A DNA stretch of 64,000 nt from Scenedesmus sp. PABB004 (taxonomy: Eukaryota): contig JABVCE010000004.1 of the NCBI GenBank assembly GCA_014905635.1, positions 310,001-374,000 on the forward strand, read 5' to 3'. The translations under genes and the position numbers were made by a program. Below the pieces are notes generated by a model. It did no database searches, was not told the origin of the DNA, and saw nothing but the letters and a program-made list of their open reading frames with translations. Of this stretch, positions 9,845 to 61,969 are shown piece after piece (within the stretch, counting starts at the first letter, position 1; the number at the start of each line of letters is the position of its first letter).

Positions 9845-12800
9845 TCAGCCGTCGAGCCCGCGCGGGCGCCTGTACAGGCGCAGCGCGAGGCTGCTGGCCA
9901 CGACGCTCACGCTCGACGCGGCCATCGCGACCGCGGCGACCCAGGGCGGCATGAGCTGGTGCGTCGCGGGGTAGAGCGCGCCCGCGGCGAGCGGGATGGC
10001 GAGCACGTTGTAACCGAACGCCCACACAAAGTTGAGCTGCATGCGCCGGAACGCCCTGCGCGAGGCGCGGCGCCCCGGCGGCGGCCGAGGCGCGGCGGCG
10101 CGGCGTCGGGGCGGCGGCCGACGTCCCGCGGCGGCGCGGCACGCGGCGCGGCGGCGGCACGTGACGTCTGCAGCCGCGTGCGGGCGCGCGCGCCTGCGGC
10201 TGATGTCAAACGCGACGACCACGTCGGCGAGGTTGCTGCGCATGAGCACAACGTCGGCCGCCTCCATCGCGACGTCGGTCCCGCTGCCGACCGCGACGCC
10301 GACGTCCGCCTCGCTGAGCGCGGGCGAGTCGTTGATGCCGTCACCGACCATCGCCACGACGACCCGCTTGCCCCCGGGGCCGGGCGCCTTGAGGCGCTGG
10401 ACCATGTCGAGCTTGGTGCCCGGCAGCGCCTCGGCCACGACCTGGGCCTCGGGGATGCCGAGCGCCGCCGCGAGCACGAGCGCGGCGCGCCTGCCGCCGG
10501 CGGCGGCGCGGCGGCGGCGGCGGCGACGGCGGCGGCGGCGGCGGCGCGGGCGCGCCGTCGGCGGCGGCGGCCCAGGAGGGCACGGCTTGGCGCAGCAGCC
10601 GCGCGCCCCCACAGCAGGCCCACGGAGCCACCGCACCTGCTGTCGCCCGTGATCATCCAGCAGGCCATCCCGCGCCGCCGCAGCGCGCGCAGCACGGGCG
10701 CCGCCTCGGGCTTGACCTGATCCGCCACCGCGAGCAGCGCGACCGCGGCGCCGCCCAGCGCCGCGGCGACGACCGTCGCGCCCTGGCCCTCGAGCTGCGC
10801 CTTGCGCTGCCGCGCGGCGGGCGAGAGCTCGACGCCGCACTCCTCCAGCCACGCGGCGTTGCCAATGACCACGTCGACGCCGCGCGCGCCCGTGCCGGCG
10901 GCGGCGGCAAACGCGCTGCCGCCGTTGGCTGCGCCTCCGTTGCCGGCGCCGCCGTTGGCAGCGCCGTCGGTGGCGGCCTGGGCTGCGTGCGGCACAAACC
11001 AGGCGCGCACGCCGCGCCCCGGCTGCACCTGCAGCGACTCCACGCGCCCGCCCGCGCCCGCCTCGCCCAAGCCGAGCGCGGCGGCGTGCGCGACGACCGC
11101 GCGCGCGAGCGGGTGCTCGCTGCCCGCCTCGACCGCAGCGACGACGGCCAGCACGCCGCGTTGCGCCGCGGTGAGGCCGCCCTTGCCGCCGCCGGCGTCC
11201 GGCGCGGGCGGCGGCGCGGCGCGGGCCGAGCCGCCCCGGGGCGCGGCGCTGCCGCCGCAGCAGCCGCCCGGCGCCGGCGCGGCCGCGGGCGGGTCGTCGG
11301 GCAGGCCGTCGCTGACAAAGACGAGCTCCGTGACGACCGGCTTGCCGGTGGTGAGCGTGCCGGTCTTGTCAAACACCACAACCCGCGTCCTGCGGGTGGT
11401 GCGGCGGCGGCGACGGCGGCGGGGGCCCGGAGTGAGCGCCGCGGCACCGCCCCCGCAGCTCCTGCCGCCGCCGCCACCGCCGCCGCCGCCCCGCGCCGCC
11501 GGCGCCGCCCCGCCGGCGCCGCGCCTGTGCGCGAGCTCGAGCGTGGTGCCGCCCTTGATGAGCACGCCCTGCTTGGCCGCCACGCCGGTCGCGACCATGA
11601 CGGCGGTCGGCGTGGCCAGCCCCAGCGCGCAGGGGCAGGCGATGACGAGCACCGCCACGGTGTGCAGCAGCGCGAGCAGGCCGGGCGTGGTGCCCGGCGG
11701 CAGCGCGGCCGGGTCGAGCCGCCCCGACGCGCCGAGCCAGAGCCACACGCCAAACGTCGCCGCCGCGAGCGCCACGACCGTCGGCACAAACCACGCGGCG
11801 ATGGCGTCCGCGAGCGCCTGCGGCGGGCGTGCACGCGCGCGGGCGTGAGCCCGCGCGCGGCCGCCGACCCCTGGCGACCCCTGGCGGCGGGCGGGGCCTG
11901 CCCGCCGGCGCCGGCGACGGCGCCGCGCGCGCGGCGCGCGCCTGGATGGGCGCCTTGTTGGCCTGCGCCGCCGCGACGAGGCGCACGATGCTGGCGAGCG
12001 TGGTGTCGGCGCCGACGCGCGTGGCCTCGACATGCAGCACGCCCGCGCCGTTGACGGTGCCGCCGATCACGCCGTCCCCTGCCGCCCGCGCCGGCGGCGG
12101 CGGCGCGGTAGCGGCGGCAGTCAGCGCAGGCTGGGAGAAGGCGCGCCCTGCAGGGCGGCTGCGGGCATGCGCGGGCTTGCGCGGCCGCACCGAGCGCCTT
12201 GGTAACGGGCATTGCCTCGCCCGTGAGCATCGACTCGTCCACCGCCGAGGTGCCCCACACGACGACGCCGTCGGCGGGGACCGTCGCGCCGGGCGGCACG
12301 CGCAGCACGTCGCCAACCTGCGCGCGCCGCCGCGCGGCGCCGCGCTCAATGCAAGGCCGTTAAACCCTGAGCCGCGGCGCCGCGCCCGCGCCCGCCGCCG
12401 CACCTGCGCGAGCTCCGCCGGAATCTCCCGCGCGCCGACGACCTCGCCGCCCGGCCCGAGCGTCAGCAGCTCCGCGGTCCGCGCGCCGAGGCGCAGCAGC
12501 GAGCGCACCGCGTCGCTCGTGCGCGCCTTGGCCTTGGCCTCGATGTACTTGCCGGCGCAGACAAAGACCAGGATGAGCACCGAGCTCTCAAAGTAGACGT
12601 GTCCCATGTACCCCGCGTCGCACGCGGCGAGGCCCATGCTCACGAGCGAGTGCGCGAGCGCCGCGGTCGTGCCGAGCGAGACGAGCAGCCCCATGTTGGC
12701 CGACCCGTAGCGCAGGCCGTGCCAGGCCTGCCGGTAAAACGGCCCGCCCACGAGCACCTGCGGTGGCAGGCCGCACGGTCGGCCGCGGGAGTTGCAGCGA

Positions 12801-14788
12801 GGCGCGGCCGCGGGGCCGACGCAGCTAGCGGCAGCAAGCGCGGCGCGGGGCGCGAGCACCTGCACCACCGCGGCGAGCGCCGCCTCGAGCACCCACGCCG
12901 CCGGCAGCGCGTTGACGACCAGGGGGCCGTCGCCCCACGCCGCCAGGCCGGGCAGCATACCAGCCATGCCCAGCACCACCACCGGCGCGGCGAGCGCGCC
13001 GCCAACGACCAGCCGGCGCCGCCAGACCGCCGCCTCGCGCTCCATCGCGCCGCCGGGGCCGCCTGCAGCGCGCCGGCGAGCACCGGCGAGCGCCGGCGCC
13101 CGCCGCAGCGGTGAGCGCGCCGCGCCGCCGGGTTCGCGGCAGGCGCCCCCGCCGGCGCGCCGCGCGCCGCTCACCCGGCTCGCCGCCGGCAGGCGCGAGC
13201 GCCGCGTCAAAGCCGGCGTCCGCGATGGCGTCGAGGATGTCGCGCGGCCCCGTCGGGCCGGCAGGGTCGTAGCTCACGTCCGCCTGCTGAGTGAGCAGGC
13301 TCACAGACACCGACAGCACGCCGGGCAGCCGCCGCACCGCCGCCTCCACGCTCGCGACGCAGCTGGCGCAGCTCATGCCGCCGAGGCTGAGCGTCAGCGC
13401 CGCCGCCGTCGCCGCCTTGGCGCCGCCGCCTTGGCCGCCGCCTGGCAGGGCCGCGTCGACGCGCAGCAGGCGCGCCGGGTACCCCAGGTCGCCCGCGGCC
13501 TCGGCGACCGCCTCGGCGCTCGTCAGCGCCGGGTCGAAGGTCACGGCGAGGCTGCCGGTCAGCAGCGACGCGCTCGCGGCCGTGACGCCGCGCTGGCGCG
13601 CGAGCCCGCCCTCGAGCGCGGCGACGCAGCTGCCGCAGCTCATTCCGCTGACCTCGTACGTCGCTGTGGCGGCGGACGCCGCCTGCTTGGCCGCCGCCAC
13701 GGTGAGCGCCACGTGCGGCTGCGCCCCCGCCTGCGGCAGGCCTGGCAGCCCGAGCTGCCGCACGTCCGGCAGCAGCTGCTTGACCGGCGACGGCCTGCCC
13801 GGCGAGGGCAGGCCCCCCCTGCTGGGCACGCGCGCGAGCGCCGGCGCGTTGGCCAGCAGCGCGCCCAGCAGCGCCGCTGGGCTGCCGCCCGCTGCGGCGA
13901 GCTCGTCGTACAACGTCGCGCCGGGGCTGGCGGGGCCGCCGGGGCTGCCGACAAAGAGCTGCGGCCCCGGCTGGAAGGTGAAGCCCCGGGGCTCCAGCAC
14001 AGCCGCCACGCGCGGCTGCGCCGCCGCGGCCGCGGGGCGGGGCAGCAGCACCTCCAGGCCCGCCGTCACCCAGTCGAGCCGCACACCTGCGGGGCAGCGG
14101 TGCGCAGGGCTCGGCGCGCGCGGGGCAGATGGGGCAGACGGCAGGGCAGCCGCGCGCCCGCGGGGCTGGCGCCGCCACACCGCGCGCTCACCGATCACGC
14201 CCAGTGCCGCCTCCGGCGCGTGCAGGAGCGCCGCCGCCGCCGCGTGCGCGCCCGCCTCCATCGCCGCGCGGCTGGCGGCGCTGAAGCACAGCGCCGCGGC
14301 GGGCTGCGACAGCTGCTGCACGAGCGCGCCGGCCTGCGCCAGCGCCTCCGCGTCGTTGCAGGTGCAGCCGGCGCAGGTGCAGACACAGAGCGAGAGGACA
14401 GGCGTCGCGGCGCCGCGGACGAGGAGGTGGGAGCAGGTGCAGCCCGCGGCGGGGTCGCCCCGACAGCCGGAGCAGGGACAGGCCGCAGGTTGGTCAGCGG
14501 CGCCGCCGGCGCAGCAGCCGCCGCCGGCAGAGGCGCCGTCGCGCGGCAGCAGCGGCTCGTGCAGCTCCTCGCTGCCGTGTGCCGCTTCCCGCCTCCTGTG
14601 GCAGCGGGAGCGGCGGGCGGCGATCCGCGCCGTGCCGCTGGCGGCAGCGGCGGCAGCAGCGGCGCGTGCCGCGCTCCCGCCCGCGCCGCGCACCCGCCGC
14701 CGAAGCCCAGGCCCTGTTTGGCGCGCTGTGCGCCCGAGCCCTTGGCGCGGAGCTCGTCGTAGAGCGCGGCGGCCTTGGCCTCCTCCAT
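9845..14788 (-). CDS. Cu(+)-transporting P1B-1 ATPase (HMA5/RAN1/CTP-like), multi-exon
   Basis: Two HMA motifs (GMSCGSC, GMSCASC), VDESMLTGE, ACPCALGLATPT, DKTGTLT, SEHPL, MVGDGINDSPAL, YN and MAASS in the last TM helices. First exon 14788-14694 splices in frame to 14595. Confidence 0.93.
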
Positions 14789-15215
14789 GGCGGCGGCTCG
14801 ACCGCCGCTCGCGATGGCCGGCGCCGCTGCTGCCGCGGCGCCGCCTACGGCTGCCCGGGCATGGCGCCCGGCGCCTCGCCGCGAGCCCGCCTCACTGACT
14901 AATCAACCGCACGGGCGCGCGGCGACCGGGCGGGAGGGGCGCCGCACTTGCGCTGGAGGCGGCGGCGGGCGCGCGTGTGTGTACGGGACGTGGGCACAGC
15001 GTGGCGGCGGCTGTGTGGTGCGCTGGCGGAGCGCCCTGCCGTGTCCGGGCGCAGCGCGCCCCGGCGGCGTGGCTGGGCGCCACGCGCCGCAGGCCCTGGC
15101 ACACGCGGCGCGGCGCGGGGCGCGGGGCGTGCGGCGGCGCACGTGCGCAGCGCGCGCCGCGCAGGGCAGGAGCGCTGGAGCGTGAGCCCTCATCACACAG
15201 TCTGTGCGCCCCTCG
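14620..15215 (-). repeat. Copy A of a roughly 600-bp inverted duplication (promoter + exon 1 + intron donor); partner at about 33735-34345
   Basis: The reverse complement aligns with 33735-34345. Exon 1 is 93/95 nt identical and the flanks carry indels. Ends are approximate. Confidence 0.95.
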
Positions 15216-15704
15216 GCCAGGCGCGCGGTCAACGGGCGGCCGAGCATCAAGCGACCGCCCCGCCGGCGGTGGAGCGCGCTGTGCAGTTTACATTTCCGAG
15301 GAGCGCGCCAGCCAGCGCACTGACCAAAACCCCAGCCGCCGGTCATTGTGCCCACGTGGTCAGCAGCGTCGTTCAGTGCGGCGCCACCGCGGCGGGCGCG
15401 GCCCCCCCCCCCCCCCCACGCCGCCGCGGCAAACAGTTCGTGCTGGCAGCGGGCGCTTCTGCAGCGCCTGCGCTGCCGCGGCCCCTGCGCGGTGCCGCCT
15501 GAACGGCCATCCTGAACCCTGCTGCCTGTCTGTCGCCCCGTGTCACTGTGCAGTCGGCGCCGCCACGCCGCCCGTATGTGCGGGCTCGTCAGCCGCCGGC
15601 GCCCAGGGCTGCCTGGCGCGCGGTCATGGCCCGGCGGCTGGTAATCGACGCTACTCGCCCTCCCGACGCGGCCCGCCCGCCGCGGCCGGCCGGCGCCGCC
15701 GCGC

Positions 15705-18128
15705 TCAGCGGGCCTTGCCGCCCTTGGCCGCCGCGCGGCCCGCCGCGACGCTCGCCTCGAGCTGGTCCAGCTCCTGCCACATCGCCGCGGCGCTGAAGTC
15801 CTGCCACGCGGCGTGCTGCTCGCGGATCGGCCGGTTCGCGCGCAGCACGGCCGAGTTGAACTTGAAGCCTGCTCGTGGCGGCGGCGGCGGGCGCGGCGGC
15901 CGGGGCGTGAGCGGCGCGGGAAGAGGGCGGAGGGCGGCCGCAGCGCGCCCGCGCGCCGCCGCCGCCGCCTGCGCTCGCACGCGCGCGCGGCGCCGCTGCG
16001 CACCCGAGCCAAACGCGAGCTGCCACACGCGCTGGCCCTTGGTCACGCCGTAGGTCGACTCGATGTAGGCGAGCTCGTACCAGACGCTCGTGGAGCTGGT
16101 GTTGCCAAAGCGGTAGAGGCTCGCGCGGCTCGGCTCGACCTGGGCCCGCGAGAGGCCCATCTCCTTCTCCAGGCCGTCGATGATGCCGCGGCCGCCGGTG
16201 TGGATGGCGTAAAAGTCAAAGGCCTTGCGGAAGTCGGGCGTGTAGGGCGCCAGCCAGGCCTTTGGCAGCGCGGCGCGCAGCGGCGGGCACGCGCGCGCGG
16301 CGGCGCGCGCGCCGGCCGACGCGCCAAACGCGGCGAGCTCGCTCCACGGCAGCACGCGCGGGCCGAGCGAGGTCATGTTGGCGCGCAGCGCCTGCGCGCC
16401 GACGCTGATGAGGTCCTTGTTGAGCCGCACGCCGAGCTGGCCGTCGCCGTCCTCGGTCTGGTACACGCAGGCGTACGCGACGTCGTCGGCCGCGAGGCTC
16501 GTGCGCACGAGCACAGGGATGGTGTACTTGGCCGCGCCCGCGTGGCGGCGCTTGTTGCTCAGCAGCACGGCCGAGCCGTTGGAGCGGAAGAGGCACTGCG
16601 GCGCGCGCGCGGACCGCCGCGGCGTTAGGCGCGCGTCTGCGGCGCGCGCTGCGGGCCGGGCAGCCGGCGGGGCTGGCGCGGGCTGCGGGCTGGCGCTGGC
16701 GCTGCGCAGACAGCTGCGGCGCGGCTCACGTTGGGGATGAGCATGCCGCGGTCGTTGCCGCAGTAGTAGTTGTTGGTGATGTTCTCGTGGCTCACCTGGG
16801 CCGCAGGGGCGGCGCGGGCCAGGCGTGTGAGGTATTTTTTTATCGGCGCGGGGCGGCGCGGGGCGGCGCGGGGCGCGGGGCGTCGCGAGCGCGGGGCGCC
16901 GCCGCACCACGAGCGCTGTCTTGTTGGGGTGGCGCTCGAGCAGGTCCTTGGCCAGGTCTAGCGCGATGACGCCTGCGCGGCGCGGCGCGCCGGCGGCGCG
17001 CGCGGTGCAGTTGGCGCGCGCCCCCGCCTCGCCGCCGCGCTGCCGCCGCGCCACGCGCCGCCTTGGGTCCGCCGCGGCCCCGGCGCCGCCACTGCACGCA
17101 CCCGCGGAGCAGCCCATGCCCCCGAGCGAGTAGTTGAGCGTGCCGGGGCGCATCTTAAAGTAGTTCATGATCGCCGCGCTCAGGCTGGGCGTGGGGTTGA
17201 AGAGGCTGCTGTTGGTGATGACGATGTCGACGCCGCTCGCCGGCACGCCCGCCTTGGACAGCACCTCGGCGATGGTCGGGAAGCAGGTCGCGGCAAACTC
17301 AAACCTGGACGCCGCGCGGCGCGCGGCGGCACGCGTAAGCGTGCGCGGGTGGGCGCGCGGCGCGGGGGCAGAGGCCGCGCGGACGCCGCCGGCGCGGCGC
17401 GGCGCCCCGTGCACGGCGGCGGCGGCGCACCGCGCCGCCTCGATGCCCAGCTGGCCCGCGTCGCCGCTCTGGATCGCCGGGCAGACCGCCGTGTCGTCGC
17501 CCAGGCCCGTCCTGCGCGCGCGGCGCGCGCAACGTGAGTGCGCCGCCCTCGCGCTGTCTCGCGCGCGCGCCGGCGCTGCCCCGCGCGGCTCCGGGCGCGG
17601 CCGTATGGTGCCCGCGGCGCGCGCAGCGCGCGCACCTGTACGCAATCTTCTCCTGGAAGTCAATGTCCTCCGCCGTGAACATCTCGCGCTTCTCGCACAG
17701 CGACCGGATCTCGCTGCGCGGGAAGCGCCAGCTGAGCGGCGGCGGTCGGCGCAGCCGGCGGCGGCGGGGGCGCGGTCAGGCCCGTGCGCGCCCCGCGCGG
17801 CCGTGCGCGTCGTGCGGGCGCCACGGCGGCGGGCCGCGCCGCGCCTGGGGTCGGGCTTGTGCACCGCAAAGTCGAGGACGTAGACGGTGGGGAAGCTGCG
17901 CGGCCGCAGGCTCCACAGGTGCGCGAGCAGCAGGGCGCCCGCGAGCATCAGCAGCGGGTGCACCGTGATGCTGGCGCCGCCCAGGGCGCCCCACACCCCG
18001 CTCCCGCCCAGCTCCAGCTGTGACAGCGAGCTGGTGAGGTCGTCCAGGCCGCGCAGGCCGCACACGGTGGCGAGCAGGCCCACGGCCGGCATCACCGCCT
18101 GGCTCACCGCCTCCATGGCCGCCTCCAT
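15705..18128 (-). CDS. KCS: 3-ketoacyl-CoA synthase (FAE1/KCS, very-long-chain fatty acid elongase)
   Basis: VYVLDFAVHKP, TNSSLFNPTPSLSA, YSLGGMGCSAG (catalytic Cys), CLFRSNGSAVLLSN, IHTGGRGII, LYRFGNTSSTSVWYEL, QLAFGSG|FKFNSAV. Confidence 0.95.
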   Translation of the reverse strand: MEAAMEAVSQAVMPAVGLLATVCGLRGLDDLTSSLSQLELGGSGVWGALGGASITVHPLLMLAGALLLAHLWSLRPRSFPTVYVLDFAVHKPDPRRGAARRRGARTTRTAARGAHGPDRAPAAAGCADRRRSAGASRAARSGRCARSARCSRRRTLTSRRRLRTGARAARAAGTIRPRPEPRGAAPARARDSARAAHSRCARRARRTGLGDDTAVCPAIQSGDAGQLGIEAARCAAAAVHGAPRRAGGVRAASAPAPRAHPRTLTRAAARRAASRFEFAATCFPTIAEVLSKAGVPASGVDIVITNSSLFNPTPSLSAAIMNYFKMRPGTLNYSLGGMGCSAGACSGGAGAAADPRRRVARRQRGGEAGARANCTARAAGAPRRAGVIALDLAKDLLERHPNKTALVVRRRPALATPRAPRRPAPPRADKKIPHTPGPRRPCGPGEPREHHQQLLLRQRPRHAHPQREPRRSCLRSASASPQPAPAPPAARPAARAADARLTPRRSARAPQCLFRSNGSAVLLSNKRRHAGAAKYTIPVLVRTSLAADDVAYACVYQTEDGDGQLGVRLNKDLISVGAQALRANMTSLGPRVLPWSELAAFGASAGARAAARACPPLRAALPKAWLAPYTPDFRKAFDFYAIHTGGRGIIDGLEKEMGLSRAQVEPSRASLYRFGNTSSTSVWYELAYIESTYGVTKGQRVWQLAFGSGAQRRRARVRAQAAAAARGRAAAALRPLPAPLTPRPPRPPPPPRAGFKFNSAVLRANRPIREQHAAWQDFSAAAMWQELDQLEASVAAGRAAAKGGKAR

Positions 18129-27097: not shown

Positions 27098-30886
<3,789 letters not shown>

Positions 30887-31173
30887 CTTGCGGACCCGGG
30901 GTGGCACCGCGGGGCGCGCCTGGTCACGGGAAGAGGCCGAGCGGGGCGGAGGGGCGCCGGCAAGCGGAGCAGCAGCAGCACGGCCTTGAACCCCTCAGAC
31001 CCAGCGCAGCGCAGGAGCCGATTCCGGGCCCCCCGCTCCGGCAGCAGCGCTGCACAGCTCCTGCACGACTCTCCAGCACCCAGCACGGCGCGGCGTAGTC
31101 GGCACGTCCCGCGCGCGGCGCGCCCAGCCCGTTGGCTCTCTCGCCGGGCTCTCGCAGCGGCCGCTCGGGCGCC

Positions 31174-31834
31174 ATGGCGCTGGCGCGGCGAGGGACCCGG
31201 CGCCTCTCCGCGCCCGCGGCCCCGCACCGCCCGTGCGCGCCGCGACGACGGAGCACGCGCGCCCCGGACGCGCGGGAGCGCGCCGCCGAGCTGGCTGGCG
31301 GCGCCTGGGCCGACGCGGCGCCGGCGGAGCAGCAGCGCCCGTCGCCGCCGCCGCGCGCGGGCGCCGAGCACCGCGGGCTGCTGCTGGAGGAGCGCCCGGT
31401 GTCAGGTGCGCGCGGCCGCGGCGGCGGGCGGCGCGTCGCCGCGCAACCGCCGGCGCGGCGCGGCGCGCGAGCAGCGCTGACGCGCCGCGACACCGCCGCG
31501 CGGCGCCGCACGCGCAGTCGCGGAGCTGGTCGACCACATCTGCGCCGACGGCCTCGCCGCCATCGCGGCGACGTGGGCGGCGCAGGGCCCGGCCGCGACG
31601 GCCGCGCAGCTGGGAGCGCGAGGCCGCCCCATAAAGTGGGCGTGCTCCCCGGCCTCGCTACCGCCGTGGGAGCGCCGGCCGGTGGTCTCAACACCGGCGG
31701 CTGGGGGGATGGGGGCTGCCGGGGCGCCCCGGGGGGCGCCCCGGCGCCGCGGGCGCGCGGCGCGCGTGCGCGGCGCTGCCACCGCCGCGCGCGCGCCGCC
31801 GCCGCCGCCAACACCGACCATGGGCATCCTCTGA
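31174..31834 (+). CDS. Short spliced ORF of unknown function, or a 5' gene fragment, divergent from RPS3
   Basis: GCCATGG start. Intron 31406-31517 has G|GTGCG, a CTGAC branch point and GCAG|, joining LLLEERPVS to VAELVDHICADGLAAIAATW in frame. The 3' part looks non-coding and stops inside the hairpin region. Confidence 0.35.
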
Positions 31835-32035
31835 TCGCCGGCCGCCTGAAACAGGCCACAGCGGCGTGAGGCATGACGGTTTGGGACCGGCCCGTCGGTC
31901 GGTGCCCCCGCGAAGAGGGGGTCCCCCCCACCCGGAACGGGTGACAAGGCGAGAAACGCACGCGCACACGCCTGACCTAACCTGGCAACACAACACAACA
32001 GCAAGAGGCCTTTTAACGTCCTGCCCAGGACGGAG
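31810..32035 (-). ncRNA. Candidate Fanzor omegaRNA scaffold (hairpin-dense non-coding segment)
   Basis: Lies just downstream of the Fanzor stop. Stems at 32017-32032, 31929-31943, 31905-31921, 31885-31900 and 31844-31856, plus an 8-bp long-range pairing 31812-31819/31897-31904. Strand and function are inferred. Confidence 0.5.
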
Positions 32036-32059
32036 AGCGCAGCGCACCGCACACGCCGC

Positions 32060-33414
32060 TCACGCCGGGGGGTCCACCGCGGCGGCGGCCGCCTGCCGGA
32101 ACGCGCCGGCGAGGCGCGCGCCGCCCGCCGTGCCGCGGCTGCCGCGCAGCAACTCGTGCAGCGTGAGCGCGCAGATGTTGCGCGCCGCGTTGTCGTCGCG
32201 CGGCGCGACGACCGTGCACCCGGGGCACTGCACCAGACCATAGATGCCCCGCAGCTTCTCCACGCGCGCCCCGCAGACAGAGCAGGTGACGCTCGTGCGG
32301 TGCTCGTCCATGAGCACCGCGGCGACGCGCCGGCGCGCGTAGTAGGTGCGCAGCAGCGCCAGCAGCGCCTGCCGCGGCGGCCCCGGCCCCGAGATGCAGC
32401 CCCCCATGCCCAGGCTGGCGTCCCCGATGCCCAGCACCACCGCGGGCAGGTCGGCGGGCAGGCGCGCGTGCTGCCGGACGCGCCCGCGCACAAAGACCCG
32501 GCCGTATGCAGTCAACTGAATCGCCGCATGCAGCGCGCGCTGCTTCAGCCCGTGCTTCCGCAGCCGCCACGCACACTCTGCACGGCACGCAAGCAAGCTA
32601 TATGCGAATGCATTGTTGAGCACATGATGCACCCGGCCGTTGCGCCACGCCCCGGCGGCGGCGACGCTCGTGCCCGAGTATGCAGGCACGCGGTTCAGGC
32701 AGGCATGCACGCAGTCGCCGCCGCCGGGCGGGCGGCGGTCGTACCGCCCCGGCCGCCCCGGCCGCCCCTGCTGCCACGGCCGGTGCCGCTCGATCCCGCG
32801 CGCGTCGCGGTGTGCGGCGGTCTTTATTCTAATGATGCGCTCCGCCTCGTAGCGGCGGCCGTGGTCGCCGCGGTGGCGCGGCGCGTTGGGGCAGCGCCGC
32901 TGCGCGATGCGGCGGTGCGCGACGCGCGTGCAGCCCGGGCCCTGCCGCCAAGTCGCGGCACAAACCATGCGGGCCCGGCCCGGGTCGACTCCGACGACGC
33001 GCACGCCCGCGTGCACGGCCGCGGCCGCGCCGCGCAGCGCGTGCCCCGGCGGCAGGCCCTCCACGCCGCGCAGCTCGCACGGGTCGAGCGGCAGCGCGTC
33101 GAGCGCCGCCTCGTCGGCCACGCCGTGCCCAGCTGCGGCGTCGCGGCCAGCTGCTCCTCTCCCAGGCGGTAGCAGGCGAGCTGGCGCAGCGCGCCGCGCA
33201 CGCCCGCGAGCGCGCCCGGCGCGCCCGGCGGCGCGCTCAGCGCCGCGAGCAGGCGCGCGAGCTCCGCGCCGTCGGCGCTCTGCGCCGGCAGGAGCACGAC
33301 GCCCGCGCAGTCGGCTATGCGCGCCTGGCGCTGCGCCGTCCGCCTGCGCGGCTGCTGCTGCTGCTGCTGCTGCTCCTGCGTCAGGGGGGCGAAGAAGGCC
33401 GTTATCTTCGCCAT
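32060..33414 (-). mobile_element. Fanzor (eukaryotic TnpB-like) RNA-guided nuclease gene; RuvC/Zn-finger half intact, N-terminus atypical and apparently frameshifted at 33121
   Basis: RuvC-I VVGVDPG (D at 32984-32986), VLGIGDA...GPGPP, RuvC-II VLMDEHRTSVTCSVC (E at 32303-32305), CPGC, RuvC-III RDDNAARNI (D at 32195-32197). Intronless and locally more AT-rich than host exons. Confidence 0.88.
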
Positions 33415-33734
33415 CGCGCCGCCGCCGCGACGCAGCTGCGCGCGCAGCGGCTGCAGCGCTTGAACGGCGAGCGGCCGGGTGCGGCGTGCGCGGCGCGTGC
33501 GGCGGTGCAGACAGCTGCCCGGGGCGCTCTGGCCAGCCCGGGGAGCCCGGGGGAGGAATGGACAGCGACGACGGCGCGGCTTGAGCCCCGCCGACGCCGT
33601 CGTCGTCGCAACCGCCCGCCGCCACCGCCGCCGCCGGCGCCATTGCCCCGCGCACCGCCACGCGCGCGTCACGCTCGTCGTCGCCGGGGCAGCAGCTCCC
33701 GACGCCCGACGCACCGCGCGAGAGGGCGCCCCTG

Positions 33735-34345
33735 GCGCGCGCAGGCTGTGTGATGACTGGCTGGCTCACGCTCCAGCGCTCCTGCCCTGCGCGGCGCGCG
33801 CTGCGCACGCGCGCCGCCGCACGCCCCGCGCCCCGCGCCGCGCCGCGTGTGCCAGGGCCTGCGGCGCCCTGCGCCCCGCCACGCCGCCGTGGCGCGCTGC
33901 GCCTGGACCGGGCAGGGCGCTCCATCAGAGCACCACACAGCCGCTACCAACGGTGTGCCCACGTCCCGTACGCACACGCGCCCCGCTGCCGCCGCCTCCT
34001 GCGCACGTGCGGCGCCCCCTCCCCGCCGCCCGCTGCCCGGTCGCCGCGCGCCCGTGCGGTTGATTCAGTGAGGATGGCTCGCGGCGAGGCGCCGGGCGCC
34101 ATGCCCGGGCAGCCGTAGGCGGCGCCGCGGCAGCAGCGGCGCCGGCGCCATCGCGAGCGGCGGTCGAGCCGGCGCCATGGAGGAGGCCAAGGCCGCCGCG
34201 CTCTACGACGAGCTCCGCGCCAAGGGCGCGGGCGCACAGCGCGCCAAGCAGGGCCTGGGCTTCGGCGGCGGGTGCGGGGCGCGGGCGGCGCCGCGCTGCT
34301 GCCGCCGCCGCTGCCGCCAGCGGCGGCGGCGCGGACCGCGCGCGG
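33735..34345 (+). repeat. Copy B of the inverted duplication (promoter + exon 1 of the PRP40C-like gene)
   Basis: Matches the reverse complement of 14620-15215, including MEEAKAAALYDELRAKG.GAQRAKQGLGFGG and the GG|GTGCG donor. Confidence 0.95.
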
Positions 34346-37300
34346 CCCAGGCAGCGGGCGCCCACGCCTGCTTACCGGCGCACCCGCCACCGCAGGGGCC
34401 AGCAAGCGCCGCCGCCCGCGCAGGCGCCGCCGCAAGGCGGGCCACCGCCGGGCAAGTGGGGACCGCCGCCGCCGGCGTCGGCGCCGCACTTCCACGCCGG
34501 GCCGCACCCTGGACCGCCCGGCTTCGCACACCCCGGCGCGCCCGGCTTCCCGCCGCACGGCGCGCCCGGCTTCCCGCCGCCGCCCATGGGCCACTACCCG
34601 CCCGGCGGCCCTCCGCGGGGGCCGTGGGGCCTGCCACCGCCGCCCGGCTACGGCGGCACGCCCGCACCCGGCTACGGCGGCGCGCCAGCTCCCGGCTACG
34701 GCGGTGCGCCACCTCCCGGCTACGGCGGCGCGCCGCCGTCGGCGCCGTACGGGGTGCGGCGCAGCGACCGGCCGCCCGCGCGCCCCGCCGCCGCCGCCCG
34801 CGCCGACGCCGCCGCCCGCCCGCGCCGACGCCGCCGCCCGCGCCGACGCCGCCGCCCGCCCGCGCCGCCGCCGGCGCCGACGCAGGCGCCGCCGCCGTTT
34901 GCGGCGCCGCGCGGCGCGGCGCTGCCGCCGCCGGCGGCGGGGCGGCCGCTGACGGAGGAGGAGCTCGAGCAGCGCGCGCTCGAGGAGCAGGCGGCGGCGA
35001 TCGAGGCCGACTTTGCCGCCGCCGACGCGGCGGCGGCGCGCGCCGCGGCCGCCGAGGAGGCGCGCGCGCGCGTGGCCGCCTGGGCGGCGCACAAGGCCGG
35101 CGACGGGCGCACCTACTACCACAACAGCCTGACCGGGGAGTCGAGCTGGACGCGGCCGGACGGCTTTGCCGGCGACGAGGCCGGCGCGGGCGGGCCGCCC
35201 GTGCCCGTCGCGCAGGCGCAGGTCGGCGACACGCGCTGGTTTGAGGTCAAGTGCGCCGACGGGCGGCGCTACTTTTTTAACCACGCCACGCAGGAGACGG
35301 CCTGGACCGCGCCGCCCGAGGTGGTGGAGGCCAAGGCGCGCCAGGCCGACGAGGCCGCGGCGGCCGAGGCGCGCGCGCACGCCGCCGCGGCGGAGCAGCG
35401 CGCGTTTGCGGCGCGCCAGATGCAGCAGGCGTCGGTCGCGGCGGCGGCCGCCGGAGGCGGCGGCGGCGCCGGCGGCGGCGCGGCGCCGTGGGCCGCCGCG
35501 CCGGTCGGCGCGGCCGCGGACGCGGTCCGCGCGATGCACATGCAGCGCATGGCCGCTGCGCGGCAGCAGGGTGGCGACGCCGGCCACCTCGACAAGGGCG
35601 CGCGCGTGCAGGTGCCGCGCGCCGCACGCCGCGCCGCGCCGAGCGTGCGCCGCGCCGCCGGCCGCGCGCGCGCCGCTCAGCGCCGCGCCGCGCCGCGCCG
35701 CGCCACGCGCCGCCAGGCCTTCAAGCGCCTGCTGAGCGAGGGCGGCGTCAACGCGTTCAGCCTCTACGCCAAGGCCAAGAAGACCCTCGAAAAGGACCCG
35801 CGCTGGAAGCTGCTGCCCAGCGACGGCGAGCGGCGCCTCGTCTTTGACGGTGCGCCGCCGCGCGCGCGCGCGCCGCGCGCGCCGCCGCCGCCGCGCCGGG
35901 CCAGGCGGGCGGCCCACTCGCGCGCGCGCCGCGCGGCCCGCGCCGCGCAGAGTTTTGCAAGAATGTGGCCGAGGAGCAGAAGGCCCTTGCCGCGGCGGCG
36001 GAGAAGCAGGCGGTGGAGGGCTTCAAGTGAGGCGTGGGCCTGGCTGCTGCCTGGACCTGCCAGCCCGCTGTGTGTCGCGCCGCAGCGCAGCCGGCCGCCC
36101 ACGCCCGCCCGCGCCCGCGCGCGCCCGCGCCGCGCAGGGCACTGCTGGAGGAGGCGCTGCAGCTGGAGCGCCAGCTGCACGTCGCGCTGCTCGCGGACGA
36201 GCAGGCGCAGGGCGCCGACGGCGCCAACGGCGAGGCCAGCGCGGGCGAGGAGGGCGCCGCGGACGGCGCCGACGGCCCAGGTGCGCGTTCGCGATGGGCC
36301 CGCCGACTGCGGCGGGCGCGGCGGCCGCTGCTGACGCGCGCCGCGCCCGTCGGCAGGCGGCGCCGCTGTGCCGGCGCCTGACGACGTGCCCGAGGAGGCG
36401 CTGGAGCTGAGCCTGGAGCAGCTGGAAAAGTACTGGTGAGCGAGGGGCGCGGCGGCGCACGCTTGCGGGGCCTGCTGGGCACAGCGCCCAGCGCGCCCGG
36501 CGCCGCGCCGCAGGTCCAACGACGAGCGCTGGGACGCGGCCACGGCCGAGCAGCGCGCTGCCCTCTTCCAGAAACGCTTCGGCGCGGCGGCCGCCGCCGC
36601 GGCGGAGCGGCGCGCGGCGCAGCGGCGCCAGCAGGAGGCGGACTTCCGCCGCCTGCTGGTCCACCTGGGCGTGCACGCGGACAGCAGCTGGCGCGGCGGC
36701 GTGCGCGACGCGGTGCGCGCCGCGGCCGCGGCGCACCAGAAGCAGTCGGCGAGCGGCGGCGGCGACGCCGGCCGGGCGGCACCGGACGCGGCGACCGCGG
36801 CGGCCGCGGCGGCGCTGGACGAGGCCGAGCGCGAGGCGCTGTTCCGGGCTGCCGTCGCGGAGCTCGCGGCCGCGCGCGACCGCGCGGCGGCGAGCGAGCG
36901 CGCCGAGGCGGCGCGCGCGGCGGCCGCCGCAGCGCGCATGGCCGAGCAGTCGGCGGAGGCCGACGCGCGGCAGCGCCGCGCCGCGCGCAGCGACGCGGCC
37001 GCCGCGTTCCGCACGCTGCTCGGCGAGACTGTTCGGAGCGAGGTCGGCGCCGACTGGGACGCGTGGCTGCCCAAGCTGCGCAAGGACCCGCTGGTGCGCG
37101 CACGCGCGCGCCGCGTCGGCGGCCCGCGCGGCTGGCGGGCCGCCCCGCCCGTGCGGCTGGCCCGCGCCCGCGCCGCCCGCGCCCACGCCGCCCGCGCCCG
37201 CGTCGCGCCGCACGTGCTGCGCAGAAGCGGGCCAGCAATGCGCTGCTGGGCGAGGGCGACATGGCGCGGCTGTTTGACGAGCATGTCGCCGCGCTGGCCA

Positions 37301-37890
37301 AGGCGTCTGCCGCGGGCGCCGCCGCGGCGCTGCGCGAGCGGCTGACGCCGCTGCTGCCGGGGCCGCTCGCGGCGGTCGCGGCCGCGGCGTCGGCGGGCGT
37401 GCCCGACCCCGCCGCGGAGGCGGGCGCGGCCGCGTGGCGGCGCGCGGGCGACGGCGAGCTGGCGGACGAGCTGCGGCACTTTGCCGCTGCGGACGACGCG
37501 CTCGGCGGCGACGAGCGCTGGGCCCGGGCGCCCGAGGGGCTGAGGCGGAGCGCCTGGCGCGCCTGGGTCGACGAGGCCGTGTGGGGCAAGCCGCCGGCGC
37601 CGCCGGGCGGCGAGCCCGGCGCGCACGCGCGCGGCGGCGCGGGCGCGCGCGACCCGCCGCCCGCGCGGGAGCGCGACCACCGCGCGCCGCGCGACCACGG
37701 CGGCCGGGACAGGGAGCGCGAGCGCGACCGGGAGCGGCGGGACGACCGGGAGCGGCGGGATGACGGCCGCCGCGAGCGCGAGCGGGAGCGGGAGCGGGAG
37801 CGCTCCCGGTCCCGCTCGCGCGAGCGGGAGCGCGGCCGCGGCAGTCGCTACGAGGGCGACGAGCGCGACCGCAAGCGGGCGCGCGGCTGA
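34177..37890 (+). CDS. PRP40C/TCERG1-like WW + FF domain RNA-processing protein
   Basis: Pro/Gly-rich N-terminus and two WW domains (WAAHKAGDGRTYYHNSLTGESSWTRP; WFEVKCADGRRYFFNHATQETAWTAP). FF repeats (AFKRLL...DPRWKLL...RRLVFD; AFRTLL...W...LRKDP) and an RE/RS tail. Exon 1 34177-34271 splices in frame to 34396. Confidence 0.88.
34643..34740 (+). repeat. Coding 24-nt tandem repeat (PGYGG[T/A]P[A/P]) x4
   Basis: CCCGGCTACGGCGG recurs with a 24-nt period inside the Pro-rich exon. Confidence 0.8.
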
Positions 37891-57674: not shown

Positions 57675-58096
57675 TGAACTCACGCCGACGTGCCGGGCGA
57701 ATTTGGTTGCCGCTGCGCGCGCGTGTGGGAGAGGGCTGGCGGGCGCTGGTGTTCGGCGAGCCCGCGCGCGCTGGTGCGTCAGACGGACGAGGCGGAGAGC
57801 CGGGAATGCGGGGAGCGCGGCGGCGCGCGGAACAGGACTCCGCGAGGCCGCGCACGTGGCATATCAGGGCAACGCAGGCACGACAGCGGCAGTGACGCCT
57901 GCTGCTGCCTGCCGCTCTGCCTCCTGGGCGCACCCAGAGGTCGGCACGCTCGTCACACCACAACCCTGACGCTGGGCGTGAGAGCCGGACCGCATGCGCT
58001 GAACTTACTCGCGCGACAACAGCAGCGGCGACCAGCGCCCTAACCGCCGCGGAGGGCTCACACAGGGGGGCTGCTCTCCGCGCCGCTCGCCCCTGG

Positions 58097-59776
58097 ATGG
58101 TCAAGCACGTGGGCCACACGCCGTGGTGGCCGCAGCGGGACAGCCCCGCGGCGGCGTCACTGCCGGCGCGGGTGCTGCTCTCGCCGCTCTGGCTGTACCA
58201 AAAGCTCATCTATGACGGCCGGCCCGACACCGCCGGGCTGAAGACGCGCCCCCCGTTATGGCGCGTGCTGCAGAGCCAGTGGCGCTGGCTGCAGGCCGCG
58301 ACGTGCTACGTGGGCCCGCCGGCGCACATCCTCGTCAACATTCGCTGGCCGCTGCTGGTCAACATGATGCTTGCCATAGGCATCGTCGCCGACCTGGCGC
58401 GCCCCACGCCGCTCCTGCCGCACTTTGGCACGTTTGTGATCACCACCTGGCGCCTGATCAGCTTCGTGATGGCGCTGCTGCTTGCGTTCAGGCTCAACCG
58501 ATCGTACGACCGCTGGTGCGGCCGCACGCCGCGCCGCGCCGCCCCGCCGCGCCGCTGCCGCGCCGCGCGACCTGCCGCGCCACCCGGGGCGCCACCACGT
58601 GCAGGTGGCTCGCGCGGCAGTCGTTTGGCGGCGTCGCCGGCGCGAGCATGGCCCTCAGCCAGCAGGCGATTGCGTACGTGCAGGACGCCGCGATACGCGT
58701 GAGCCGCCCGCCGCGCACGCCGCCGCGCACGCCGCAGCGCACGCCGCCGCGCCCGCGTCCGCCCCACAACGCGCGCGCTGCGCGCGCAGGCGGAGCTGCT
58801 GCGCTGGGCCAAGGTCTGGCCGTGGTGCATACTGCAGGCGTGCCGCGGCGACGCGTCGCTGCACGCGCGCGCCGCCGCGGTGCTGACTGCGGACGAGCTG
58901 CGCTTCTATGACGCGGTGCCCAAGCCCCGCGAGGTCATTCACTTCAACCTGCGCTCGCTCGTGGCGCTCGCGGGGCGGGCCCTGGGCGACGCGGAGCACC
59001 AGGCGCTGGAGGGAACGGTTGCCACCGGCATCGCCGCCGCGGGCGGCTGCGTGCGTATCCGCATGCAGGCAATGCCGCTCGCGGCGAGCCTCATGTGCAC
59101 GGGTGCGCGCGGCGCTCCGCGGCCGCGGCCGGGAGAGCGCCGTCGGCGGGCCGCCGAGAGCGCCGCCGGCGGCCCACGCCACCGCACGCGCCCGTGCCCC
59201 CGTGCGCGCGTCGTGGCCGCGCGCGCGCGTCGCGGTGGCTGTGCCGTCAGGTTTCTTGCAGATCTTCCTGATGTTTCTGCCCTGCGGGCTGCTCATGGAG
59301 CTGCCGACCACGGCCGCGACGCCCGCGTGGGGCCTGGTCATCTACTTTTTCACCTGCGTGCTGCTCCTCGGCGTGGACGAGGTCGCCAACCAGCTGGAGA
59401 TGCCGTTTACGGCCATCCCGATGGAGGACATGGCCAACTCGACGGCGCGCGACCTCGACATGTGCGCACAGCGCGCCACGCGCGCTGTGCGGCGGCTCCG
59501 CAGCTGGCCGGGCGGCGCCCGCTGCGCCGCGCTGGCTCTCTCTCCTGACCCCGCGCCCGCTGCCGCCGCCGCAGCCTGCTGGGACAGGCGGCGGCGCTGG
59601 GCGCGCTGCGGGAAGCGGCGCTCGAGCGTCACCGCTGCTCGGCCGGCGCGGCGCCGCCGGCGTCGCCGGTGCCGCCGGCAACGACCGCTAGTGTGGCCGG
59701 CGCTGACGCGGCAGTCGCGGGGCCGCAGCAGCTGCCCGCGGCGGGCGCGCAGCAGCAGCGTCGCATGGCGGTGTAA
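58097..59776 (+). CDS. Bestrophin-like (UPF0187/RFP-TM) anion channel, copy 1
   Basis: LLLAFRLNRSYDRW|WLARQSFG and LLGVDEVANQLEMPF. 5 exons, with the TAA overlapping TGTAA. Confidence 0.88.
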
Positions 59777-60108
59777 CCAGAACCTCAAGGCCCGCTTACG
59801 CGCGTTTGGGTCGGCGATGTCGGTGCCTGTCGCCTCCTGGTGGCCCGCCCGGATCGACGTGCCCGATCGCAGGCTCGCCGCGCCCCGACGCAGCTCCCCC
59901 AACGGCGCGACGCCGCCGCGCCCGGTGAGCTGCTATCTCTTCACAGGAGGTCGCGCGCTCCTCAAACCACCGACCTGAACTCCTTGGCACGCGCGAACCG
60001 GACCGTCGGCGGTGGTCTGGCCTGCGCGCTCCACTGCGCGCAGCAGCAGCGACCAGCACCCTTACCGGCACACACAGGGGGGCTGCTCCGCGCGCCGCTC
60101 GCCCCTGG

Positions 60109-61773
60109 ATGGTCAAGCACGTGGGCCACACGCCGTGGTGGCCGCAGCGGGACAGCCCCGCGGCGGCGTCACTGCGGGCGCGGGTGCTGCTCTCGCCGCT
60201 CTGGCTGTACCAAAAGCTCATCTATGACGGCCGGCCCGACACCGCCGGGCTGAAGACGCGGCCCGCGCAGTGGCGCGTGCTGCAGAGCAAATGGCGGTGG
60301 CTCCAAGCCGCGACGTGCTATGTGGGCCCGCCGGCGCACATCCTCGTCAACATTCGCTGGCCGCTGCTGGTCAACATGATGCTTGCCATAGGCATCGTCG
60401 CCGACCTGGCGCGCCCCACGCCGCTCCTGCCGCACTTTGGCACGTTTGTGATCACCACCTGGCGCCTGATCAGCTTCGTGATGGCGCTGCTGCTTGCGTT
60501 CAGGCTCAACCGATCGTACGACCGCTGGTGCGGCCGCACGCCGCGCCGCGCCGCCGCGCCGCCACGCCGCTGCCGCGCCGCGCGACCTGCCGCGCCACCC
60601 GGGGCGCCACCACGTGCAGGTGGCTCGCGCGGCAGTCGTTTGGCGGCGTCGCCGGCGCGAGCATGGCCCTCAGCCAGCAGGCGATTGCGTACGTGCAGGA
60701 CGCCGCGATACGCGTGAGCCGCCCGCCGCGCACGCCGCCGCGCACGCCGCAGCGCACGCCGCCGCGCCCGCGTCCGCCCCACAACGCGCGCGCTGCGCGC
60801 GCAGGCGGAGCTGCTGCGCTGGGCCAAGGTCTGGCCGTGGTGCATACTGCAGGCGTGCCGCGGCGACGCGTCGCTGCACGCGCGCGCCGCCGCGGTGCTG
60901 ACTGCGGACGAGCTGCGCTTCTATGACGCGGTGCCCAAGCCCCGCGAGGTCATTCACTTCAACCTGCGCTCGCTCGTGGCGCTCGCGGGGCGGGCCCTGG
61001 GCGACGCGGAGCACCAGGCGCTGGAGGGAACGGTTGCCACCGGCATCGCCGCCGCGGGCGGCTGCATGCGCATCCGCATGCAGGCAATGCCGCTCGCCGC
61101 GAGCCTCATGTGCTCGGGTGCGCGCGGCGCGCGCCGGCCGCGGGGCCGCGCGCAGGTGGCCGCCGCTGGCGCCCACAGCATGCCGCCGCGCCTGCGCGCG
61201 CGCGGCGCGCGTCGTGGCGGCTGTGCCGTCAGGGTTCCTGCAGATCTTCCTCATGGTTCTGCCCTGTGGGCTGATGGAGCCGCCCACGGCCGAGACGCCC
61301 GCGTGGGGCCTGGTCATCTACTTTTTCACCTGCGTGCTGCTCCTCGGCGTGGACGAGGTCGCCAACCAGCTGGAGATGCCGTTTACGGCCATCCCGATGG
61401 AGGACATGGCCAACTCGACGGCGCGCGACCTCGACATGTGCGCACAGCGCGCCACGCGCGCTGTGCGGCGGCTCCGCAGCTGGCCGGGCGGCGCCCGCTG
61501 CGCCGCGCTGGCTCTCTCTCCTGACCCCGCGCCCGCTGCCGCCGCCGCAGCCTGCTGGGACAGGCGGCGGCGCTGGGCGCGCTGCGGGAAGCGGCGCTCG
61601 AGCGTCACCGCTGCTCGGCCGGCGCGGCGCCGCCGGCATCGCCAGGGGTGGCGCCGCCGGCGTCGCCGGTGCCGCCGGGAACGTCTGATGGCGCATTCGG
61701 TGCTCACGTGGCTGTCGCGGGGCCGCAGCAGCTGCCCGCGGGCGGCCCCGCCACCTTCGCACCAGAGGTGTAA
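60109..61773 (+). CDS. Bestrophin-like anion channel, copy 2 (tandem paralog)
   Basis: Same motifs and exon structure as copy 1, offset by about 2.0 kb. Confidence 0.88.
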
Positions 61774-61969
61774 CCGAACCTCAAGGCCGCTCACGCGCGG
61801 CAGCTGCCGCGCGCCGTTTGGGCCGGCCACGTTGCGGTCTTGAGGTGTCGGCGTGTGGTGGACCGCCCCATCGATCGATCGCAGGCTCGCCGCGCGCCGC
61901 TGGCCAGCCATCGGAACGCGCCCGGCCAGCGCCGCCCAGCCGCCCCTGCGCGTGTCCGACGCACCCGGA

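Follow-up and report, generated by a model that had tools for sequence, protein, structure and literature searches.

In a 64,000-nt stretch of Scenedesmus sp. PABB004 DNA (the window; 79% G+C, on contig C35 of a 40-Mb genome in 80 contigs), a copper-pump gene carries at its head an inverted copy of the 5' end of a PRP40C-like splicing-factor gene, and we consider it probable (at roughly 0.6) that transcription of the pump starts from the copied promoter and that its protein carries a fused PRP40C leader of 31 residues. In the series of events that we propose, a piece of ~620 bp of the PRP40C-like gene, holding the core promoter, the 5' UTR, coding exon 1 and the first half of intron 1, would have been copied, probably as a small circle, which would then have reopened within its intron part and been inserted in inverted orientation ~50 nt upstream of the resident pump start. 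The copied 5' splice site would pair with a CAG of the pump's old 5' region to form a 98-nt hybrid intron, so that the 31-residue leader would be joined in frame to the whole pump, whose own ATG would have been lost. Through the copied promoter and the copied ATG, the pump would now follow the expression of the splicing factor.

Self-BLAST of the window showed that positions 14620–15212 are an inverted copy of 34339–33734 (89% identity across 616 columns, E given as 0). Together with a search of the genome, this bore out the original prediction that a copy of the 5' end of a WW/FF-domain gene lies ahead of the Cu-ATPase, with better bounds at 15228–14624. The insert so defined, by homology to the donor and by junction alignment, is ~605 bp long (14624..15228, reverse strand), and its source, ~19 kb away and ~6% diverged, covers, in the WW/FF gene, the upstream region, exon 1 and the 5' half of intron 1 (33734..34351, forward strand; self-BLAST and alignments). 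One alignment of the two copies gave 32 substitutions in 597 aligned columns together with 14 indels, and a second gave 35 substitutions in 567 columns with 8 indels (9 gaps counted, one end gap being removed by hand), six of these eight not being multiples of three. Across the whole genome only the two copies themselves give long matches to the segment; the other 54 of the 56 matches are low-scoring and short, none covering more than 213 query bases. The exon-1 peptide was likewise found twice in the genome (2/2 candidates). In both genes exon 1 is 95 nt long and ends in phase 2 (14788–14694 and 34177–34271), with two substitutions and no indel between the copies, and in the gene models it is joined in frame to what follows on either side, as had been proposed. 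The copied upstream region (14789..15210, reverse strand, by alignment to the donor) would provide a putative core promoter and 5' UTR. Within it, an ATG at 15193 opens a 96-aa ORF and an ATG at 14862 a 5-aa ORF. Both copies have this 5-codon upstream ORF (14862, reverse; 34101, forward), and an extra upstream ATG followed by a 14-codon frame (34074, forward) is seen in the donor only. The tetramer GTAC, of which there is one in both copies, occurs at about chance level by a hand estimate.

The donor was modelled as a PRP40C/TCERG1-like gene of nine exons (34177..37890, forward strand), in which removal of the intron at 34272–34395 yields a 951-aa protein that opens with a proline-rich segment and contains two WW domains and one or more FF domains. 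This assignment draws on the gene model, on Pfam (PF00397 twice, PF01846 in exon 4 and PF23517 below the cut-off) and on homologues named PRP40C; a second exon piece gave no FF match. The donor retains 457 nt of contiguous native upstream DNA, of which ~440 nt were copied to the pump, so that the core promoter probably lies within the copy. RPS3 (start at 30886, reverse strand) and the PRP40C-like gene (34177, forward strand) are divergent, with start codons that were ~680 nt apart before a young insertion separated them, so that some of a bidirectional promoter may have been carried along in the copied upstream region.

Homologues of the two genes support copying from the WW/FF gene into the pump gene, with one informative outgroup protein on each side. 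On the splicing-factor side, a Micractinium conductrix protein annotated as pre-mRNA-processing 40C (P0044) begins with the leader (20/31 residues identical to the donor version; E=2e-6 among the 161 proteins compared) and has Ala at a site where the pump copy has Ser. The leader was carried by one of the 150 best matches to the WW exon, 16 of which were inspected at full length; many of the 150 are fragments, come from other lineages or have other N-termini. A direct search with the leader peptide, a weak test, scored none of 121 candidates, and an initial WW search gave a single match among 8000 scored, which lacked the leader. On the pump side, ten relatives were found, five examined and four aligned with the full model, the closest named proteins for exon 5 coming from Scenedesmus sp. 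NREL 46B-D3 (85%) and Tetradesmus obliquus (82%). All four aligned orthologues lack the leader (0–1 identities in 31). The Scenedesmus orthologue P0151 starts MDAELREPLL, which was matched by eye to GSEELHEPLL in pump exon 2, and identity over exon 2 is 75/135 residues to P0151 and 60/135 to P0155; only one of the four orthologues is annotated up to the EPLL motif, the other three having later starts. A metagenome scan for related algal loci kept 80 of 307 confirmed loci, at 36–48% identity versus 66–85% for the algal proteins.

Since the leader is present in P0044 and the start of P0151 falls inside exon 2, the WW/FF gene is supported as the donor and the pump as the recipient, and the same alignments support an ancestral pump start within the present exon 2, with loss of the pump's own ATG. 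Every comparative test that was run (leader ancestry, orthologue start and intact frame) agrees with the young chimeric gene, formed by capture from the WW/FF gene, that had been suggested from the window. At the 3' junction of the insert, 14624–14622 (reverse strand) reads ATC in the pump frame, one base off ATG, so that an older start codon of the pump, further upstream, may have been the site struck by the insertion.

The junctions themselves bear on how the piece travelled. Homology ends on the 3' side at donor position 34335 and pump position 14624. At the opposite end, local and anchored alignment match the first ~18 nt of the insert (15211..15228, reverse strand) to donor 34336–34351, which lies just past the 3' end of homology and would thus stand in permuted order. 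The local score of this short piece is 24 there (null fraction 0.005) and 17 at the donor's 5' edge (0.19), and its anchored score of 20 was reached at none of 1500 random sites, for ~18 GC-rich bases with anchors picked by eye. These data suggest, with moderate support, insertion through a circularly permuted intermediate. If the order is permuted, a circle of ~620 bp would have opened at GA^CC and been joined into GA^TC of the host, with a 2-nt microhomology (GA). Upstream of the insert lies the 3' end of a ketoacyl-CoA synthase gene (15288..15707, reverse strand; PF08392), comprising a stop codon at 15705–15707, the 3' UTR and a TGTAA at 15292, which we take to be its chlorophyte poly(A) signal. 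With the insert removed, the synthase stop and the old pump start would be 523 nt apart. Neighbouring gene pairs are separated by 535 and 520 nt, and the likeness fits a clean insertion, so that the native promoter may persist upstream; any surviving native pump promoter would sit in 15288–15707.

This spacing, normal for the region and leaving no room for a large deletion, is what favours capture of the exon without capture of the promoter. The native promoter would then survive upstream of 15228, overlapping the 3' end of the synthase gene, the insert would form part of a long 5' UTR that gives the pump just a start codon and an exon, and regulation would be largely unchanged. Against this, two ATGs (15193 and 14862) would precede the real start on such a transcript, and only ~60 nt separate the TGTAA from the insert; we regard this explanation as rather improbable.

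Under the preferred reading, in which the copied promoter drives a fusion, the chimeric pump gene comprises 11 exons on the reverse strand. The captured exon 1 (14694..14788; gene model and alignment) supplies 31 codons and 2 nt, with its ATG in the context GCCGCC-ATG-G. The predicted hybrid intron (14596..14693; 98 nt, GT..CACAG) consists of a copied donor half (14693–14624) and a pump-native acceptor half (14623–14596). Exon 2 (14192..14595) holds, by orthologue alignment, the ancestral start region from which the ATG has gone, the EPLL motif and a Cys-rich segment, and exons 3–11 (9845..14086; gene model and Pfam) encode the P1B Cu-ATPase. Spliced at 14693–14596, the model yields a single open frame of 1261 aa. 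As the original prediction had stated, the exon-2 frame has no Met ahead of the Cys-rich segment: its first in-frame ATG is Met145, at 14261, and 13 Cys residues precede it. We take the EPLL motif to be a possible sorting signal. Exon 2 with the Cys-rich segment occurs once in the genome, and a search there for an unmodified copy of that exon found none. The ESM Atlas gave no usable match to exon 2.

Pfam identifies two HMA domains, an E1-E2 domain and a hydrolase domain in the pump, and the motifs CPC (805), DKTGT (849), YN (1207), MAASS (1236), TGE, HP and GDGIND are all present. The CPC, YN and MxxSS membrane motifs and the catalytic motifs are, as we understand them, marks of P1B-1 Cu(I)-ATPases. 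By its full set of domains and motifs the pump is a member of that class, with copper transport predicted, and the database name of an orthologue is P-type Cu(+) transporter. A paralogous two-HMA Cu-ATPase on another contig (C19:466000-477008) has a different N-terminus, and the Cys-rich segment was not detected in it. In exon 3 of the pump, the short stretch LYDEL (13915–13895, reverse strand) also occurs in the captured leader; since P0155 has YDEL at this place too, the match is probably a coincidence.

To assess splice-site strength, a weight matrix was built from 35 modelled introns, which come from five genes in the window. It gives the copied 5' splice site 9.1 bits, a value that 26 of the 35 modelled sites equal or fall below. 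The acceptor at 14596 is weak, at 3.1 bits: only two of the 35 true sites do no better, and 12% of 5837 decoy AGs do at least as well. Positive-scoring AGs within 130 nt of the splice donor lie at 14638, 14596 and 14593, and all three (3/3) are in frame. At 98 nt the hybrid intron falls inside the 76–570 nt range of the modelled introns. The commonest branch-site-like 5-mers are absent from it, and GGCAC, found in 1 of the 35 introns, is present. Splicing of the hybrid intron is thus predicted from its sequence. GC-AG donors are needed in 4 of the 35 modelled introns (11941, 11524, 10193 and 17844, reverse strand), three of the four within the pump gene.

The weak acceptor is also the first point in favour of a shorter pump, translated from Met145 or from a near-cognate codon on transcripts that start downstream of the copied ATG, with the copied exon as a passenger. 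Met145 stands in a usable context (GCGGCG-ATG-G), the 3' junction (14624) itself reads ATC in frame, two in-frame AGG codons follow it, later starts are annotated in what was counted here as 2 of the 4 orthologue records, and the C19 paralogue could buffer the change. Against this, the stretch ahead of Met145 shows no decay: it retains 47 of the 60 residues common to both orthologues (124/170 for residues 145–470, a comparison of low power) and, over exon 2, 11 of the 12 Cys residues of P0151, with a GC3 of 0.91 and no frameshift. Furthermore, any transcript that contains 14788 meets a strong out-of-frame ATG first, which if unspliced opens a dead-end frame of 197 aa. Applied to everything ahead of Met145 in exons 1 and 2, a test on the absence of frameshifts is borderline (P 0.02–0.07); for the exon-2 part by itself it gave P 0.04–0.12, at most suggestive. 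We hold a shorter pump to be about as improbable as exon capture under a native promoter.

Over exons 2–11 no frameshift was seen, versus ~23 (by a hand recount) to 34 expected if the region had been neutral since the event, an expectation obtained by applying half of the between-copy indel rate per lineage to the 3.7 kb of pump coding region. This difference indicates that the pump has been under selection since the event. That the insertion silenced the pump, leaving a young pseudogene covered by the second two-HMA Cu-ATPase on C19, is accordingly very improbable: the copies have reached ~6% divergence with 8–14 indels, yet the 3.7 kb of pump coding sequence holds no frameshift or stop and the catalytic motifs are all intact. 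Less probable still is that the assembly is at fault, through a chimeric read or the misplacement of a haplotype, since, although the junctions are known from the assembly alone, they are sharp and lie inside one contig, and an artefact would be near-identical whereas these copies differ by 32–35 substitutions and 8–14 indels along their whole length.

For the captured exon, the original prediction had pointed to the two differences in 95 nt set against indel-bearing flanks; the counts stood, and as a sign of selection the argument was dropped. A Fisher test of exon against flank gives p=0.14 on substitutions alone and p=0.03 once indels are counted as well, and with the donor exon taken as constrained, 2 changes are seen versus 4.2 expected (p=0.22). 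The low exon-1 divergence is compatible with neutrality and gives no evidence of selection on the copy.

Abutting the donor, and so limiting its contiguous upstream DNA to the 457 nt given above, lies a young composite insertion (31110..33719, reverse strand; PF07282 and genome matches), in which two pieces derived from contig C9 surround, in permuted order, the 3' part of a Fanzor-type element. The flanking pieces are adjacent on that contig (C9:586000-595000) in the opposite order, from which they differ at 3/599 and 6/540 aligned bases (0.2–1%). Sequence at C9 continues into an intron-bearing gene, so that C9 looks like the native site of the pieces. This is a second, clearer permuted insertion within the same 20 kb, and at 0.2–1% divergence against ~6% for the pump duplication it is the younger of the two. 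The 3' 1.5 kb of the element has at least 13 further near-full copies (at least 1.38 kb, 93–99%) among the 74 matches listed, which came from 40 of 484 candidates scored. In this family the 3' end is fixed, with short variable bases beyond it, and the 5' side carries captured host-like DNA. One copy (C24:672500-688000) spans ~10 kb and has a 2370-codon stop-free frame that ends in the Fanzor domain, along with SAE2-like and TFIIS-N-like pieces.

The Fanzor-type insertion was ruled out as the cause of the pump duplication, being younger and having left no element DNA upstream of the pump (null fraction 0.44). Duplication of the donor by an element end, through ACCGCGC repeats at both ends, was rejected since the 5' motif belongs to the younger C9-derived piece, and a 13-bp target-site duplication around the element was rejected since one arm lies inside that piece. 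On the RPS3 side, no homology was found to continue past the insertion (null fractions 0.89 and 0.12). In the genome there was no match to a tyrosine recombinase, and a search for Helitron-like sequence gave no match, as did its positive controls.

A broader scenario, which we put forward tentatively and rate as rather unlikely, is that a resident pump kept by selection exchanged its promoter, start codon and first 31 residues, all at once, for a 0.6-kb circle from a splicing-factor gene and afterwards came to depend on the graft. Taken with the permuted C9-derived insertion beside the donor, this would point to a genome in which such circles, possibly from the rolling-circle machinery of Fanzor-bearing elements, routinely move promoters and first exons between host genes.

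The event is of a known type; less usual are the re-heading of a resident gene, the loss of its own start, the predicted hybrid intron and the circle-like junction. The sheep ASIP case reportedly borrows non-coding exons. As described in PMC3927395, a sheep ASIP duplicate lies under the ITCH promoter, and the likeness is that a duplication places a gene under the promoter of an unrelated one, promoter use being predicted here; in sheep a duplicate of the target gene is involved, whereas here a predicted hybrid intron would join a coding exon in frame to the resident gene. The same source describes the cattle KIT duplication via circular intermediates (Durkin et al. 2012, in PMC3927395), with which the pump copy would share a permuted order and microhomology at the join (2 nt, GA, here) and from which it differs in scale (492 kb versus ~0.6 kb, with a permuted piece here of ~18 nt). 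In C. elegans and Drosophila, young genes are reported to include many partial and chimeric duplicates (PMC3449122), and like those the pump graft combines a 5' partial duplication, a break inside an intron and an ORF completed at the new site; unlike them, the recipient here is a resident orthologue that lost its own ATG and not a spare copy.

Chlamydomonas CRe-1/2/3 are described as Fanzor1 non-autonomous Helitron2 elements (PMC3627910), and it is the insertion beside the donor, not the pump copy, that resembles them in its fixed 3' ends, variable 5' ends and captured 5' sequence (PMC3627910; related, PMC10288648); the pump copy, by contrast, holds no element sequence, and the element beside the donor arrived after the duplication. 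Arabidopsis halleri HMA4 (PMC12744752) is likewise a P1B metal pump with a change of expression in cis, reported there and predicted here, although in that plant a point-like cis change and tandem copies underlie a proven phenotype, whereas here the 5' end was replaced wholesale. In Chlamydomonas, iron starvation induces CTP1, a pump proposed to load copper into the Golgi (PMC8814560), orthology to the present pump not being assumed, and a table of the pump family is given in PMC3355532. The literature covered, which took in few subscription journals, yielded no publication on this pump/PRP40C fusion.

With donor, recipient, both junctions and outgroups all in view, the locus shows the re-heading of a gene with unusual completeness and in a form that can be dated. 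If expressed as modelled, it would present a metal pump on a splicing-factor promoter, a 31-residue leader ahead of EPLL and an intron made from two half-introns, and would give work on green algae a test case of regulatory rewiring, intron gain and circle-mediated duplication.

Elsewhere in the window, a 1.9-kb intron-bearing membrane-protein gene, presumably bestrophin-like as judged by eye, is present as tandem duplicates (58020–59887 and 60041–61899, forward strand) that are 90% identical. Long identical stretches lie beside diverged ones in this pair, a pattern that suggests gene conversion.
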